A DNA stretch of 64,000 nt, from IMG/VR virus record IMGVR_UViG_3300025011_000016. One strand, 5' to 3'. A program made the translations under genes and the position numbers. This document shows positions 2,437 through 37,680 of this stretch, piece after piece. Under the pieces are notes generated by a model. That model made no database searches. It had not been told where the DNA came from and worked only from the letters and a program-made list of their open reading frames with translations. Each line of letters begins with the position of its first letter. Position 1 is the stretch's first letter. Origin of the DNA: a virus (Duplodnaviria > Caudoviricetes).

Positions 2437-3375
2437 ATGATTATACAAGGACAACCTGAGTTAAATTTGACTGAAGTATTTGTTACAGATTTTGGAGATA
2501 GTTATCATAAGTTAGCAACAGATCCATCTTCTGAATTAGAAAAAGATGCACGTAAAATTCGGCGACGATATAGAAGTGTTGCCGAGTATATGAGAGCTTT
2601 GTCCATATATAATGAGTATATGGAATGGTTGGTCCAGAAACATGGTGGTGGTCAATTGTTCGGTATAAAGAACAAATATGAACTCATTGAAGACTTTGTT
2701 CCCCCTAAACCAAGAATGCGTAATACCGTAATGAATAAGTATATTCTCAAGAATCGTATTTTATTAAGCAATATGAAACATTCTACACCATTAGATTCAA
2801 TTGAAGAATTCATTGATAGGACAGTTGTTATCGATAAAGATGTTGAATTCACAACTGTTAAAATGACAGATAAAGTTGCCCTTCGGATGTTAAAAGAAGA
2901 AGGTAATAACTTATCAGCAAAAGAGATTAAAGAGATAACTAACATTGATTATCTAGAAGAGTATTTCAAAACTAAAAATGTTATGAAGGAGAAGAAAGAA
3001 AAAGAGGTTAATATATCATTAAGAGAAATACTTAGTGGTGCATATGTTGATAAGATCAAAGATACCACTGAAGAAGATACTATTATATGGTATAAGGGTA
3101 ATTACATGAATCGGGAAACTGTTAATGAATTACAAGTATATCAAGATTTAAATGATAGTGGTTGGAACTCAATGAGATTGATGAAACATAAAAATGTTAG
3201 TAAACGTGTTACTAGAGTTATGCAAGACAAAGATCGTAGATCTAAGAAGAAAGGTAAGAAGAATAAAAAGAATGATGATTTCATAGTTAAAATTGTAACC
3301 GATAATGACTATGATACATTTAAAGATTTTGAAGAAGATATGAGAGACTTTACCGCAGGTAATTTATTTAGGTAA
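2437..3375 (+). CDS. hypothetical protein
   Basis: Long ORF; AGGAGG before ATG 2437; TATATATTAT motif upstream. Confidence 0.7.
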   Translation: MIIQGQPELNLTEVFVTDFGDSYHKLATDPSSELEKDARKIRRRYRSVAEYMRALSIYNEYMEWLVQKHGGGQLFGIKNKYELIEDFVPPKPRMRNTVMNKYILKNRILLSNMKHSTPLDSIEEFIDRTVVIDKDVEFTTVKMTDKVALRMLKEEGNNLSAKEIKEITNIDYLEEYFKTKNVMKEKKEKEVNISLREILSGAYVDKIKDTTEEDTIIWYKGNYMNRETVNELQVYQDLNDSGWNSMRLMKHKNVSKRVTRVMQDKDRRSKKKGKKNKKNDDFIVKIVTDNDYDTFKDFEEDMRDFTAGNLFR

Positions 3376-3415
3376 GCGTGTATTATGTTTCTAAAAAGAT
3401 GAGAGAGGTGTTATT

Positions 3416-4963
3416 ATGACAACCAAAGTAATACGTAGTAGAATTCTTGAACATTTTGAACCGGCTCTATTGAAAGATCTTTATAAAGTTTGTAAATCAA
3501 CTGGAACTTCTGATAATAATATCAAAACGGATATTATGTTAGAAGTACTACATCGTTATAAGAAAGATTTTACAGAATTAGGGCCTGGAACTAATAGGCT
3601 TGCAATTCTTATTGATAACTATGTATTTAAATTAGCCTTGGATAAGGCTGGTACTAGAGATAACATTAGTGAGTTTATAACCAGTGAAGAACTACAACCA
3701 TATGTTATTAAAACGTATGAAACCAATGGCTTAATTGCCGTTAGTGAATATATTACTGTCATATCACGTGAGGAATTTATTGATCGCCGAGAAGAGCTTC
3801 GTAAAATTTTATCTATATTATCTGAAAGTTACTTATTAGGTGACGTTGGTACTGTAGGTAAAAACTTCCTCAACTGGGGCTATCGTAATGACGGAGATTT
3901 GGCAATATTGGACTATGCCTACATTTATAGAATTAATGGTGAGGAAATGACTTGTAGGAATTGCCAATCATTAATTATATATGATGAAAATTATCATAAC
4001 TTATTATGTCCTAATTGTCATAGGAAGTATACTTTCACTGACATCAGAAGGCGCATTCCAATGGCTGTCGAAGAGAAGGATAATTTTATGGCCATGTCGT
4101 TAGCATATAAGCTAATAGAGCCATTACAAACATTCAATGATAGTCTTGAAGAAGATAATTCTTCTTCTGAAAATAAAAAGGAGGTCTATGAAATGGGTAA
4201 AGGTTTTGGTAAATTTGATGATTCGGATGAAATGCCGGGTATTGATGATTATCTCAAAGTATTAGAAAAGTTTAATGCCAACAAGAAATCGCAAGTTATT
4301 AATCCACCGGTAATCGATGGTGAGTTAAATGAAGATAATGTTCTTCAAACGGCTCAAATGTTGGTTGATCCAGATGAGACACTATTTGAGGAAGAATCTG
4401 AGGGTACTAATACAGTTACCAATGAATTTTTCCATATTGATAGGGAGATGTCTAATGATCCTGAATGTATCGATGAAACCACTGGTGAAGGTAACTGGCC
4501 ACAATGTTGTGGAAATGAATGTGCTGATACTCCAGTTGTAGTAGAACAGGAGTTTATAGTACTGAATGCTCACAATGCTACAGTCGGAGTGGATATGTGT
4601 GTGGATGGGAAGGACACTACCGTGTTGGTATCAGCCGATACTGATACTGGAAACGTTGAATCGATTCAAGTTATACAAACTTCTTCAGATATGCATGAAT
4701 ATATGTCCCAATTACCATCTAACATTAATATGGATATAGTAGATACTAGTTTAGTTTTGAACGTCGAACTGGAACAAGGTCCTCAGACAATTGATTTGAG
4801 GACCGACACCCCAGATGTAGCAAATTCAGTTCAGAATATGAGAGATTTGCTACGAATGGATATTGGCGATACTGGTCTTTCAGATGCAGAAAAAGACCAG
4901 TATGATAAAATGTTTGAAAAAGCTGGTCAGGATAGTCGGATTCATAGAGGAGGACATAAATAA
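3416..4963 (+). CDS. protein-kinase-like domain plus Zn ribbon plus acidic C-terminal region
   Basis: LGPGTNR (Gly loop), VFKLA, NWG...AILDYA (activation-segment-like), CRNC...CPNC; D/E-rich tail. Confidence 0.6.
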   Translation: MTTKVIRSRILEHFEPALLKDLYKVCKSTGTSDNNIKTDIMLEVLHRYKKDFTELGPGTNRLAILIDNYVFKLALDKAGTRDNISEFITSEELQPYVIKTYETNGLIAVSEYITVISREEFIDRREELRKILSILSESYLLGDVGTVGKNFLNWGYRNDGDLAILDYAYIYRINGEEMTCRNCQSLIIYDENYHNLLCPNCHRKYTFTDIRRRIPMAVEEKDNFMAMSLAYKLIEPLQTFNDSLEEDNSSSENKKEVYEMGKGFGKFDDSDEMPGIDDYLKVLEKFNANKKSQVINPPVIDGELNEDNVLQTAQMLVDPDETLFEEESEGTNTVTNEFFHIDREMSNDPECIDETTGEGNWPQCCGNECADTPVVVEQEFIVLNAHNATVGVDMCVDGKDTTVLVSADTDTGNVESIQVIQTSSDMHEYMSQLPSNINMDIVDTSLVLNVELEQGPQTIDLRTDTPDVANSVQNMRDLLRMDIGDTGLSDAEKDQYDKMFEKAGQDSRIHRGGHK

Positions 4964-15800: not shown

Positions 15801-16515
15801 CTATGTATTTTATCTAAGTAGTAAAAAACGTGAAGAAGTAATTAAGAAATCTGATGATTGGGCTTATTGCGAACTAAGCCGATTAATAGGAAACGGTGTA
15901 GAGGCCATCGAGCAATCGTATGTTATAGATTATATAACATATGATTGAGTAGAGTACTGGTCGGTTTGCGGGCCGATTGGGAAGCGCATGGCTCCAATAC
16001 TATAGATATATAATATTGGATGAAGATATGGTCCACCCCTATATGAAAATATAGGATGTGGTGTTCGACGGCCAATGTATATGACCGGTGATTCTTTAAT
16101 TGACGGGAATATCCTTAAAGCTTAGACTACTAATGTAATAATGTTTAAGATTGGACAATCCGCAGCCAAGTCTCTTATATAAGAGAAAGGTTCAACGACT
16201 AGAGTGAGAACTCGTAGATACTTTATGTATTGAAATGGGAAACCGATAGATTAAATCTATCGAAGATATAGTCTATTATCCTAATGAGTATTAGGGAAGT
16301 TCATAAGAGAACTGTATAGATTTATAATCTATATGAATATAAAGGATATATTGAATATTATTTCACTGAAGACTAAGAAACTAATTAAAGCTTATGATAA
16401 GACATTTAATCCGAGAAAGAATATGTTCATTTCTAGAAATGATGGATTATTTAATGATGATTTCAATCTACTAAAAGATCAACTTATTGGTCTATATGAG
16501 TTTAACAATATTTAA
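12831..16515 (+). CDS. rpoC: RNA polymerase beta'-like catalytic subunit (N-terminal part); 6 exons 12831-13037, 13333-14025, 14334-14609, 14917-15030, 16064-16072, 16345-16515, about 489 aa
   Basis: Spliced product restores the Zn-binding CKC..C..C, GHIKD|QILGGRINF, NRNP|TIN and NAD|FDG|DILN (NADFDGD); AGGAGG before ATG 12831. Confidence 0.9.
13038..13332 (+). ncRNA. group I intron (ORF-less, 295 nt)
   Basis: P1 GGAU/GUCC; P/Q/R/S elements; 3' G at 13332; joins ASD|WGD in frame. Confidence 0.9.
14026..14333 (+). ncRNA. group I intron (ORF-less, 308 nt)
   Basis: P1 GGAU/GUCC; P/Q/R/S; joins HIKD|QILGGR. Confidence 0.88.
14610..14916 (+). ncRNA. group I intron (ORF-less, 307 nt)
   Basis: P1 CCCU/GGGG; P/Q/R/S; joins NRNP|TINY. 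Confidence 0.9.
15031..16063 (+). mobile_element. group I intron (1033 nt, divergent core) carrying a GIY-YIG homing endonuclease
   Basis: P1 CGGAU/GUCCG; P4 ACGGU/ACCGU; S GAAGAUAUGGUC; ends ...GUGGUG just before TTC GAC GGC. Confidence 0.85.
15265..15948 (+). CDS. intron-encoded GIY-YIG homing endonuclease
   Basis: VVYIMRN....VYIGQT, conserved R and E, GYN motif; lies between the Q and R elements of the intron. Confidence 0.88.
   Translation: MRILIKPYGVVYIMRNLIDTKVYIGQTVNLERRKNEHKNRKSSSSKRYNFHITKVIEEYGYENFEFKVLDEAFSKKDLDDKEKYFISLFKSNDPKYGYNSRGGNLQEPLNQRTKDLMSSSHIGLTETAITKRKKSHKILAFKDNVCLIVDSGKLFGDMIGKDRNNVTNALRKGIKIKGYYVFYLSSKKREEVIKKSDDWAYCELSRLIGNGVEAIEQSYVIDYITYD
16073..16344 (+). ncRNA. 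group I intron (ORF-less, 272 nt) with an apparent C at the 5' splice site
   Basis: P/Q/R/S elements; removal joins FDG|DILN; P1 CGGC/ACCG. Confidence 0.82.
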
Positions 16516-33629: not shown

Positions 33630-36600
33630 TTGGTTAATAAGAAATTTAAACTATCTATAAATGAGCAACCAAAAAAAATTGCCATCAAATTTGACATTTC
33701 GATTTTGAATTCTATGATCGGGTTTTTATTTAAACAATCAGTGCAAATTAATAGGAAAGCTCTTAATAATATGAAAAAATTATTTGATATTATTGATACA
33801 ACGATATATGAAGGTAATGATAAACTTGAAGCACGACTTAATTTTATAAAAACAGCTTTGGACGCTCGCATAACTAAACAATTCGAAAATGAAAGTATGA
33901 TTATAAATTTCTGTCGCGGTGATACTTATAATAAAGATACTGAAGAAATTATATCAGCAATCGGGGCCTATCGCAGAATAAACTACGAGGAGATAAAATT
34001 TATAAACAAAGCAATCCAAGATAGATTGAAATACTCTTATCTATTAGATATTAAAGATAGAATGTATAATGTTGTAGAGAAAATAGATTCTGGGGATTTT
34101 GAAAGCTTTCAGGATGTTAATGATGAATTAGTTGGACTATGTTCTCACCTATTGAATAAAACCAGAAAAACAAGTGTTCTTGATGATGTGACAACTTTTA
34201 GTTTAGATTCAGAATCATTTGAAACATCGATTACAGATATAGTCAATGCTCTCAGAGATCCATCAAAAAAATATAGGTGGCATTGTAGAGTAATTTACAA
34301 TGATAAACTTCTTTAATTGCGGGAAATCTCTTAGAGCTTCTTAATTGAAGATTGAGTAATCTGCATCCAATATTGTTAATACAACAATAAGGTTCAACGA
34401 CTAGAGTGTAAACTCGTAGATATATGAAATATATCGAAATGGGAAGCATCCTTGATGAAAAAGGTTGATGATATAGTCTTGTATCTTAATGTAAATTAAG
34501 GAAGTTCATAAGAGAACTGTATAGGAGTACATACCTATATGAAAAAACGCACGTATTTTGAAAACAGGCTTGAAAATGCTGAACCAGATACTGGCCCCTG
34601 GCTTTATATCTAAACGATTGTATATGTTTTTAGGCTTACCAGCTTATAAATAAGGTTGGCTCATTGGTAACAATGTGATATAAACTTCTTTAATTGCGGG
34701 GAACTTCTCATAGCTTTATACTAATAAAGATTGGACAATCCGCATCCAATATTCTTATAATAAGAATAAGGTTCAACGACTAGAGTGTAAACTCGTAGAT
34801 ATCGATAATATTGAAATGGGAAGCTCTCTTATTATATAAGAGATGAAGAGATAGTCTGGTATCCTATATTAATATAGGGAAGTTCATTTGAGAACTGTAT
34901 AGATTAATTATCTATATGAACATATCGGGTTTTAAATCAGGTATATTATTGAAAACTGCTAGAGATATAAAAAAGTATAATAAAGGAATTAAACCTAAAA
35001 AAGCAGGTAAAAAACCATGTGTATTATTACTAACACTTGAAAACTCAATTAGTGAATCCGTAGAGAGATTATTTAACATGGTTAGTACTTCTGAGGATAT
35101 TAGGAATTTTACTCCTAAGCAAGTTATTAAGAAATTAAAAGAAGATGGTGAATTAGTATTAACTGATGATGACGATATTGATATTATTATTAAATATTAT
35201 CCAAATAGAAGTATTGATACCTCTGATATATATACTATAGTTGAAGAATTAGCTGATGATGACAAAGAGGTAATAGCTTTAATTTTAGACTATATTAAAA
35301 GAATACGACCTGCTGAAAAAGCTAGTGACGAAAAAGAAGAATTAAAGAATATTACCAATGAATTGAAGAATCTAGCTACAGAATTAGATATACCAGTTAT
35401 TTCAGCCCATCAATATAGGGTGGCTTTATAGAGTGATTTATAAAGAGAACTTTTTTAATTGCAGGAAACTCCTTAGGACTTTATATAATAAAGATTGGAC
35501 AATCTGCATCCAATATTGTTAATACGACAATAAGGTTCAACGACTAGAGTGTGAACTCGTAGATATATAAGTTAATGATATATCGAAATTGAAAGCATCT
35601 AATAAGATGGTGATATAGTCTTGTATCCTATAGAAATATAGGGAAGTTCTTAAGAACTGCATTATATTACGAATAATGTGAAAATCGCAAATGAATAGAG
35701 CTGGAGCAAGTTCAGTTGATGCCGCATTACAAGCTAATAAAGAAGACTTGGCTAAATTTGTAGGTAGAGCCAATGTTGGAAGTGCCTATATTTCATGGGC
35801 CGCATGATGGTAATGTCATGTTGATACTTTTTTAATTGCAGGAAACTCCTTAGGACTTTATATAATAAAGATTGGACAATCTGCATCCAAGATTCTTACA
35901 TAAGAATAAGGTTCAACGACTAGAGTGTGAACTCGTAGATACTTTATGTATCGAAATGGAAAGCAACCTAATTTATAGGTTGAAGAGATAGTCTGGAATC
36001 CTAATGAGAATTAGGGATGTTTGAATAGAACTGGATTATATTACAAGTAATCTGAACATTACGGGGAAGTTTGTATAGAAGCTTCAACATACAGTAATGT
36101 ATGTTTTAAATTTTCTTTAATTGTCGGGGATCTCCTTATAGCTTAAACTACTTTCAATATAGTAATAATGTTTAAGATTGGACAATCCGCATCCAAGTCT
36201 CCCAAAAGAGAAAGGTTCAACGACTAGAGTGTAAACTCGTAGATACATTACGTATCGAAATAAGAAACCCCTTTATATAAAAAATATAGAGGGTGAAGAT
36301 ATAGTCTTGTATCCTAATTAATAATAGGGAAGTTCATAAGAGAACTGTATAAGTTTATGACTTATATGAAAATAACGACTTGAAAACTCAGATTGGGTAT
36401 GTATCATAAACGTCGAGCGTAAGAAAGGAACCGATCAATATTACTTAACCTTTAAAAGAGTTAAGATTCGTTATAGAGATCCAAATGATTTAGGTTATTT
36501 CAATCATCCATTTGATATTCAAAATAGAATGAAGCTTATTGACGACATATATTTAGAAAAATCATTATCTGAAGAAAGTCTAATGAGTGATTTTGAAGGT

Positions 36601-36717
36601 ATTGACGAGAATGTAAATAAAAAAGGTAAACGTAATGCTGTTGAAAGAGACGTTATTGATGATGATGATAAAAATGATTTATTTGACTTCACTAGAGCTA
36701 TTAATAAAACTGCATAA
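33630..36717 (+). CDS. dnaB: DnaB-like replicative helicase; 6 exons 33630-34263, 34550-34644, 34928-35410, 35688-35787, 36064-36070, 36378-36717, about 552 aa
   Basis: Spliced length 1659 nt, open; restores Walker A GLPA|GFKS, LTLEN, ILDY, ISAH|QMNR and A|WEV|LENSD. Confidence 0.88.
34264..34549 (+). ncRNA. group I intron (ORF-less, 286 nt)
   Basis: P1 CCAU/GUGG; P/Q/R/S; phase-1 junction T|CA gives Ser. Confidence 0.85.
34645..34927 (+). ncRNA. group I intron (ORF-less, 283 nt) inside Walker A
   Basis: P1 CCAGCU/GGUUGG; P/Q/R/S; joins LPA|GFKS. Confidence 0.9.
35411..35687 (+). ncRNA. group I intron (ORF-less, 277 nt)
   Basis: P1 CCAU/GUGG; P/Q/R/S; joins SAH|QMNR. Confidence 0.88.
35788..36063 (+). 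ncRNA. group I intron (ORF-less, 276 nt)
   Basis: P1 GCCU/GGGC; P/Q/R/S; T|GG gives Trp. Confidence 0.88.
36071..36377 (+). ncRNA. group I intron (ORF-less, 307 nt)
   Basis: P1 GAAGU/GCUUC; P/Q/R/S; GT|A gives Val. Confidence 0.88.
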
Positions 36718-36767: not shown

Positions 36768-37103
36768 TTATAAGTTCATATCAATCCGCTTGAAATTTAA
36801 TGTTAATCTATAACCTTCATTATAATGATCATCTGATTGTTCCAATATACCTAAAGTGACTAAATGTCTAATACCTCTTGAAACAGCGGATTTATGTATA
36901 TTGAGCAATCGACTTATTTTCACTTGGGTTATCTGTTTAAATTTTTTATCGTCTAAAGCAACTATTAGATAAATTAGTATTCGATACTCCGCTTTCGTTA
37001 AATCAACTTCCCCTTCAATAATAGTTTTACAAAAATTAATAATAAAATCATACCCATTATCACATTCCATCATAATAATAACCTCCGTTATTTTATACTG
37101 CAC
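36768..37103 (-). CDS. winged-helix DNA-binding protein
   Basis: ITQVKISRLLNIHKSAVSRGIRHLVTLG HTH. Confidence 0.75.
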   Translation of the reverse strand: MQYKITEVIIMMECDNGYDFIINFCKTIIEGEVDLTKAEYRILIYLIVALDDKKFKQITQVKISRLLNIHKSAVSRGIRHLVTLGILEQSDDHYNEGYRLTLNFKRIDMNL

Positions 37104-37155
37104 TAATGAGATTGGATAACTGGTAATATAATATTACCAGTTATCCAATATTTAA

Positions 37156-37548
37156 TTAGTCGTCTTCTCTTGGTGGATGTTTAATTTTAGATTTGGAACG
37201 ATCTTCTCTTGGGAATTTTAGACTTAGGCGAAACGTCCCTTTGTCCTCATCAATCAATCCACATACCCTTAACTTCTTTAGATTACGTAAGAAGGTTTTC
37301 TCTCTAATACCTAGCTCACGCATCATGGATGGTGGATGGATTACTCTGAAGGTTTGATGTGATAAGGTACGTAGAAAATAGATTAACATTCGATACTCAT
37401 TACGCCCCAGTGTTTCACCATCAACGATCATTTTAGAAAATGCTGTAAGATACTCCTCTCTTGTAAGTGATTTGGTGGCATCTGAATTGTCTGATAATTG
37501 TCTCAAAATCTCTTTTCTTCTTGCTGATTCAACTTGTCTTTGTGACAT
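37156..37548 (-). CDS. winged-helix DNA-binding protein (related to 36768-37103)
   Basis: LGRNEYRMLIYF resembles LTKAEYRILIYL; MMRELGIREKTFLRNLKKL HTH. Confidence 0.65.
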   Translation of the reverse strand: MSQRQVESARRKEILRQLSDNSDATKSLTREEYLTAFSKMIVDGETLGRNEYRMLIYFLRTLSHQTFRVIHPPSMMRELGIREKTFLRNLKKLRVCGLIDEDKGTFRLSLKFPREDRSKSKIKHPPREDD

Positions 37549-37680
37549 ATAAAATCATCCTCCCTTTAATATTATGTAGTATTCTTAGTAATAATATATA
37601 TTTATATATAGTAATAAATATTTTTCGTATTAACGTATTTAAACATAATGGTAAAGATATTATATAAGGAGGTTATTGAT

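Follow-up and report, generated by a model that had tools for sequence, protein, structure and literature searches.

In the Staphylococcus phage Twort, the gene orf142 is interrupted by three group I introns, and the 23-nucleotide (nt) exon between introns 2 and 3 has been shown to undergo exon skipping (Landthaler & Shub 1999, as cited in PMC10136302). In the 23S ribosomal RNA (rRNA) gene of Coxiella burnetii, two group I introns are separated by a 34-nt exon, again with exon skipping (Hicks et al. 2011, as cited in PMC10136302), and in engineered tandem Tetrahymena introns separated by a 24-nt exon, different guide sequences favor inclusion of the exon (PMC10136302). Mitochondrial mini-exons of fewer than about four codons are said to "occur regularly" (PMC10352661), and the placozoan cox1 gene has a 1-nt exon between two group IB introns (PMC5436844). 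Here, we describe a predicted 7-nt exon, GGGAAGT, between the fourth and fifth group I introns of a DnaB-like helicase gene (33630-36717) in the virus record IMGVR_UViG_3300025011_000016. The window, i.e., the whole 64,000-nt stretch that was analyzed, is the minus strand of this IMG/VR record, which comprises 100,486 base pairs, is estimated to be 42% complete, and was found in sequencing runs of a groundwater metagenome study. The helicase gene and all of its exons and introns lie on the plus strand of the window.

The likeness to Twort orf142 lies in a phage protein-coding gene with related introns lacking an open reading frame (ORF), two similar ones of which flank a very short exon that must be kept. 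The Twort introns belong to subgroup IA2; the helicase introns were classed here at the level of group I, by the Rfam group I intron model RF00028. The differences are that there are five introns here and an exon of 7 nt instead of 23, and that skipping, shown in Twort, is a prediction here. With only 7 nt, the exon can be reached over its whole length both by P10 of the upstream intron and by P1 of the downstream one. The Coxiella case likewise consists of tandem bacterial group I introns around a short internal exon, but in an rRNA gene with introns of different subgroups, whereas the present gene is protein-coding and has a reading frame to maintain. Mitochondrial mini-exons resemble the present one as few-base exons that result from a second group I insertion beside an existing intron and that are found through missing conserved residues; they differ from this phage exon in being organellar, where protein-assisted splicing is common. 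Among intron-rich huge phages, the Jug phages have a mean of 18.5 group I introns in each genome and crAss-like phages are also intron-rich, with many short ORF-less introns fragmenting essential genes, similar to the present case; micro-exons of 7-nt size are not mentioned in the portion of that report drawn on here (PMC12880540). No published phage exon between group I introns shorter than 23 nt was found in the literature. The 7-nt exon is a well-supported and extreme case within the known class of short exons that lie between group I introns; it is not a new mechanism or kind of element.

A predicted 7-nt exon between introns 4 and 5 of the helicase gene

Exon 4 (35688-35787, 100 nt) ends in ...GCC T, the final T being the first base of a tryptophan codon. 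It is followed by intron 4 (35788-36063, 276 nt, ending ...UUACG), the micro-exon (36064-36070), intron 5 (36071-36377, 307 nt, ending ...AUAACG), and a last exon of 340 nt including the TAA stop codon (36378-36717), which begins A CTT GAA AAC and continues the protein as ..V L E N S D W. The micro-exon thus reads (T)GG GAA GT(A), or W-E-V, and the predicted protein across it is A-W-E-V-L-E-N-S-D-W, with the two junctions in phases 1 and 2; the original prediction had noted phase changes there.

The junctions were derived independently by three rules, namely a U paired with G in P1 at the 5' splice site, a terminal G after a conserved tail, and an open frame, and the outcome was identical to the model of the original prediction: a spliced coding sequence of 1659 nt that is open and encodes 552 amino acids (aa). 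The earlier claim that skipping of the micro-exon would shift the frame of the C-terminus was also borne out by computation, as leaving out the 7 nt leads to a stop at codon 448. Only with the 7-nt exon are the 111 residues at the C-terminus read in the correct frame.

All five introns of the gene exceed the 50-bit cut-off of RF00028, are 276-307 nt in size, and contain no ORF; introns 4 and 5 both match model positions 1-253, at 89.3 and 56.9 bits, respectively. A P1 hairpin with a U.G pair at the proposed 5' splice site is present in each of the five. In RNAfold, the P1 hairpin of intron 4 (GCCU/GGGC) has a free energy of -7.1 kcal/mol and that of intron 5 (GAAGU/GCUUC) one of -8.8 kcal/mol. 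Each intron ends in ...CG, 9-11 nt past the P9.2 hairpin and after a conserved UGAA-tail, and compensatory changes among the five introns are seen in P9.2 and other hairpins. From their sequences, introns 4 and 5 are identified as group I self-splicing introns, with autocatalysis predicted.

Intronless homologues and relatives with a single intron

The spliced protein was aligned to seven homologues from intronless genes, namely AR9 g007, BpSp gp044, LPJP1_219, and the products of four IMG/VR contigs, to which it is 27-49% identical. No gap appeared at any of the five junctions. The original prediction had staked its model on homologues having the AWEVLENSD segment at this position, and the four closer homologues read A-W-E-I-I-E-N-S-D or C-W-D-L-(I/V)-E-N-S-D there; the AR9 group has S-A-L-M-Q-E-N-T-D, which is of equal length. 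The AR9 g007/PBS1 helicase is 29% identical overall and 40% identical in the core exon, and has the same xFKSG P-loop and the same length at the micro-exon; it is intronless, in contrast to the five introns of the window's gene.

A scan of metagenome contigs yielded 16 further relatives, several of which have an intron at one of the two positions. The closest, on a contig that begins inside an intron (L012), is 71% identical in the last exon. Its intron ends ...CATAACG and is directly followed by GGGAAGTTATGGAAAAT (W-E-V-M-E-N); in longer context, the intron tail ...TGAACATAACG is directly followed by GGGAAGTTATGGAAAATGCGGATTGG, or (W)-E-V-M-E-N-A-D-W. In L012, the intron-4 position is occupied by an intron that shares the 3' junction of intron 4, intron 5 is absent, and the 7-mer is ordinary coding sequence in contiguous DNA. 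The opposite arrangement is found in L015, L016, and L026, which are uninterrupted at the intron-4 site (...GCT TGG GAG AT) and then have an intron between TGGGAGAT and (C/T)ATAGA. Their downstream exon resumes (C/T) ATA GA(A/G) AA(C/T), giving A-W-E-I-I-E-N-S-D-W, and the insertion point, between bases 2 and 3 of the codon after W-E, is the intron-5 position to the nucleotide. L014 and L021 contain only the 3' part of the arrangement with an intron at the intron-5 position. Together with the Rfam matches and the homologue alignment, the contiguous DNA of L012 upholds the GGGAAGT micro-exon in a five-intron DnaB helicase gene that had first been proposed from the letters of the window.

The L016 intron (positions 2877-3999 of its contig, about 1.1 kb) contains a 255-aa ORF with weak matches to HNH_3 (E 1.3e-4) and NUMOD4 (E 9e-3), both below the Pfam cut-offs; its product is endonuclease-like and probably a homing endonuclease. 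The ORF-bearing introns of L016 and L026 went undetected by Rfam even at E 0.01; they were located manually with the help of the exon ends, the pairing in P1, and the core motif GAUGAAGAUAUAGUC. Four other viral contigs (L008-L011), retrieved with a degenerate DNA pattern for the micro-exon and the intron-5 guide, were rejected as chance matches, as Rfam found no group I intron in them.

Introns 1 to 3 and the intron family

The gene opens with exon 1 (33630-34263), which has a TTG start with AAGGAGG 10 nt upstream and ends in phase 1. Intron 1 (34264-34549, 286 nt, 65.6 bits) has no ORF, a P1 with U.G, and an ungapped junction. Exon 2 (34550-34644, 95 nt) ends in ...GLPA inside the P-loop, and intron 2 (34645-34927, 283 nt, 73 bits) splits the deviant Walker A motif as GLPA/GFKS; the split of this motif had been predicted correctly, and the intron responsible is the second in gene order. 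Exon 3 (34928-35410, 483 nt) contains the DnaB_C core, from the P-loop to ...VISAH, and is separated from exon 4 by intron 3 (35411-35687, 277 nt, 69.9 bits), which splits SAH/QMNR.

The five introns form one family that is abundant in this genome, with a mean column identity of 72% and invariant core blocks. Except for one base, all five have the same stretch of about 35 nt in the core (AAGGTTCAACGACTAGAGTGT.AACTCGTAGATA), with copies at 34391-34425, 34770-34804, 35534-35568, 35910-35944, and 36214-36248 in introns 1 to 5, respectively, and introns 3 and 4 have a 73-nt stretch in common at 97% identity. Such direct repeats of intron cores should invite recombination and cross-intron misfolding. 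In total, 14 introns above the RF00028 threshold were found in the window, and at least 22 matches were found in the 100-kb record.

Predicted splicing of introns 4 and 5

Five of the 7 micro-exon bases had been said to form P1 with the following intron, and this pairing was recovered: GAAGU (36066-36070) pairs with GCUUC (36081-36085), with the U.G pair at the splice site and two further U-A pairs extending into intron 5. Since the exon strand of this P1 lies wholly inside the micro-exon, the 5' splice site of intron 5 needs nothing from exon 4. In intron 4, the guide G35797-C35800 pairs with the exon sequence GCCU, and the terminal G is preceded by the same tail motif as in the other four introns. 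A candidate P10 is located at 35790-35796, just 5' of the wobble G of intron 4, and in the canonical register it is complementary to the micro-exon at 6 of 7 positions. The other four introns match their own 3' exons at only 2-4 of 7 positions, and intron 4 matches the start of the last exon at 3 of 7. A P10 between the intron 4 loop and the micro-exon would favor inclusion over skipping.

Because the P10 of intron 4 and the P1 of intron 5 need the same bases, the two ribozymes should act sequentially. Intron 4 could finish once the 7 nt have emerged in transcription, before the guide of intron 5 is made, and the simplest order would be 5' to 3' during transcription. Some exon skipping is nevertheless plausible, as the intron cores are nearly identical and GAAGT recurs in exon 4, and it would leave a helicase truncated at codon 447. 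The two GAAGT copies (35779-35783 in exon 4 and 36066-36070) are 11 nt apart in the spliced mRNA. We would like to note that our confidence in these mechanistic details, i.e., the order of splicing and the role of P10, is much lower than that in the junctions.

Alternative explanations

For introns 4 and 5 together, 994 combinations of junctions that satisfy the U/G rule and an open frame were scored against the homologues. The top two models both have 7-nt exons at this place, one being the GGGAAGT model (153.1) and the other a version shifted by one base (153.6), while models without a micro-exon score 141 or less. The shifted version places the last base of intron 4 at G36064 and the start of intron 5 after U36071, so that the exon would be GGAAGTT and the protein W-K-L. 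It obtains the highest protein-similarity score and satisfies the bare rule of a U before the intron and a G at the intron end, yet U36071-A36080 would be a Watson-Crick pair, whereas U36070.G36081 is the wobble that marks group I 5' splice sites; intron 4 would have to end in ...CGG where the other four introns end in ...CG; lysine would stand at residue 2 where the relatives have E or D; and the contiguous DNA of L012 reads W-E-V. GGGAAGT is preferred, and the shifted exon regarded as quite improbable, on the basis of the U.G rule, of the tails ending in ...CG, of the relatives' acidic residue, and of the L012 sequence. A twintron, in which one intron would lie inside the other with no exon bases between them, is the usual alternative for seemingly contiguous mitochondrial introns (PMC10352661), and the two introns are indeed almost adjacent. 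It is hardly credible here, with the frame breaking without the 7 nt, the best micro-exon-free model losing a residue and leaving the 5' splice site unpaired to the guide G, GGGAAGT being plain coding sequence in L012, and both intron units being complete by Rfam. The adjacency of the introns might also have been produced by a chimeric join at the repeated cores, as intron blocks are up to 97% identical over 73 nt and the contigs of the short-read assembly graph break inside these repeats. We consider this very unlikely, since further runs of the study, representing two samples, yielded 263-nt contigs that extend over 35928-36190, from the 3' part of intron 4 through the micro-exon into the 5' part of intron 5, with 0 differences and at the single-copy depth of the flanking sequence, and the exon order is collinear with that of all homologues. 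The sequence at the micro-exon is no artefact of assembly. A 1-nt deletion at 35553, inside a repeated intron core, was seen in one short contig per examined run, and it most likely derives from another intron copy rather than from a variant of intron 3.

The remaining alternative accepts the arrangement of the DNA and supposes that the 7 nt are usually not retained, with the ribozymes acting as one unit or using each other's sites so that the main product would be a truncated helicase, or with the gene being in decay. There are documented cases of skipping in Twort orf142 (23-nt exon), in the Coxiella 23S rRNA gene (34-nt exon), and in engineered tandem introns (PMC10136302), and the identical core blocks common to the five introns would be in keeping with it. 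In contrast, all exons are open, conserved, and ungapped relative to the homologues, which argues for selection on a full-length product, and the truncated protein would lose 105 conserved C-terminal residues. Introns 4 and 5 also differ in their guides, a difference that favored inclusion in the engineered system (PMC10136302), and the intron 4 loop matches the micro-exon better (6/7) than it matches the last exon (3/7). We consider predominant skipping or decay improbable.

Taken on these grounds, the proposed junctions, including the 7-nt exon, are very probably correct as predicted from the sequences. Several points nevertheless weigh against this reading. The Rfam score of intron 5 is barely above the cut-off (56.9 vs. 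50 bits), and protein similarity alone cannot separate GGGAAGT from GGAAGTT (153.1 vs. 153.6). With five introns inspected and a chance probability of about 0.018 for each, a P10 match of at least 6 of 7 is suggestive only. The GAAGT in exon 4 (35779-35783) matches the intron 5 guide perfectly and might serve as a cryptic 5' splice site, the use of which would give a premature stop. Sequence comparison does not demonstrate that the relatives' introns at the shared sites are orthologues of introns 4 and 5: the introns of L015 and L012 have pairwise identities of uniformly 70-82% to the window introns, with no discrimination among them. Finally, splicing at the RNA level and inclusion of the exon are predictions; neither run search listed an RNA run carrying the window, and three metatranscriptome runs of the same study contained next to none of the window's sequence words.

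Origin of the 7-nt exon

A comparison with the relatives indicates two independent insertion sites 7 nt apart, each singly occupied in relatives and both occupied in the window's gene, so that the micro-exon would be a by-product of double occupancy. Both introns interrupt codons of the conserved W-E-(V/I) segment, which has the ENSDW motif just downstream of it. The intron-5 site appears to be a recurrent homing site, which in L016 holds an intron with an HNH-like ORF. In a tree of 21 introns from the record, introns 4 and 5 are not sisters, and therefore the pair does not stem from a local duplication. Intron 4 groups weakly with intron 3, and intron 5 groups with the intron at 16056-16296 (support 0.96-0.98), to which it is 79% identical.

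In a reading that we hold to be rather unlikely, the two ribozymes would be functionally coupled through their 7 shared bases; in a related one, intron 5 would have arrived by an endonuclease-independent route. Such a route is suggested by the upstream half of any homing-endonuclease site being broken up by intron 4 beforehand, and by the nearest relative of intron 5 being an intron of the same genome that is also the downstream member of a tandem pair; entry beside intron 4 could then have been, for example, by reverse splicing into a 5-nt match. Under such coupling, competition between the P10 of intron 4 and the P1 of intron 5 would force an obligatory splicing order, and if the coupling were true, the balance of inclusion and skipping would set the amounts of full-length and truncated helicase.

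Two other closely spaced intron pairs were observed in the record. At 15916-16296, the intron at 16056-16296 is adjoined by a weak partial Rfam match (33 bits), and TTCGACGGC, which encodes F-D-G, separates the two introns. Beyond the end of the window, at G000:C1:5406-6034 (68410-69038 if the numbering of the window is continued), the Rfam coordinates of two introns leave a gap of 54 nt; once the 3' tail of the first of them is subtracted, an exon of about 16 nt (GATACGAATTGGAGAT) seems to separate them.

The helicase and its genomic context

The original prediction had likened the gene to DnaB genes of jumbo phages, and this label fits. Exon 3 has Pfam matches to DnaB_C (42.5 bits vs. a cut-off of 27, E 6.8e-11) and divDNAB (E 3.4e-10), and AR9 DnaB-like replicative helicase is the nearest named homologue. 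By tblastn, the closest named proteins are the DnaB-like replicative helicases of the Bacillus phages AR9/PBS1 and BpSp, of the Listeria phage LPJP1, and of Staphylococcus jumbo phages; the genes of three of these cultured phages (AR9, BpSp, and LPJP1) are intronless at the locus. As the closest proteins belong to the AR9/PBS1 group, the phage is taken to be an uncultured groundwater jumbo phage related to AR9/PBS1, and the gene is predicted to encode its DnaB-like replicative helicase, an SF4 enzyme with a RecA fold. A megablast search of the helicase gene against 50,697 phage records gave no match, and exon 1 (211 aa) gave no Pfam match.

The Walker A motif in the window is GLPAGFKS (34633-34644 joined to 34928-34939), in which F replaces the last G of the GxxxxGK[ST] consensus and the K-S pair is kept. 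This deviant xFKSG P-loop is common to AR9, BpSp, LPJP1, and the homologues L005-L007, whereas L004 and L016 have the canonical GGGKS. When L004 was searched against PDB sequences, DnaB chains were retrieved at E 1e-3, with a match confined to the span from Walker B to SQLxR; the micro-exon segment lies outside it. We take the micro-exon segment to be DnaB motif H4. Downstream of the helicase gene, two small ORFs are adjacent on the minus strand (36768-37133, 121 aa, and 37156-37554, 132 aa) and look paralogous, with an ...EYR(I/M)LIY... segment in both.

Significance

For the annotation of phage genes, this exon marks a lower bound in practice: ORF callers cannot see 7 bases as an exon, and would leave the helicase either in several fragments or labeled a pseudogene. 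The locus also offers a compact natural system for studying how adjacent self-splicing ribozymes avoid skipping, with two of them sharing one 7-nt substrate and with natural relatives that have only one intron or the other; the question has so far been addressed mostly in engineered Tetrahymena constructs with a 24-nt exon. Lastly, two separate insertion sites within 7 nt at a conserved helicase motif would bear on the clustering of homing sites.

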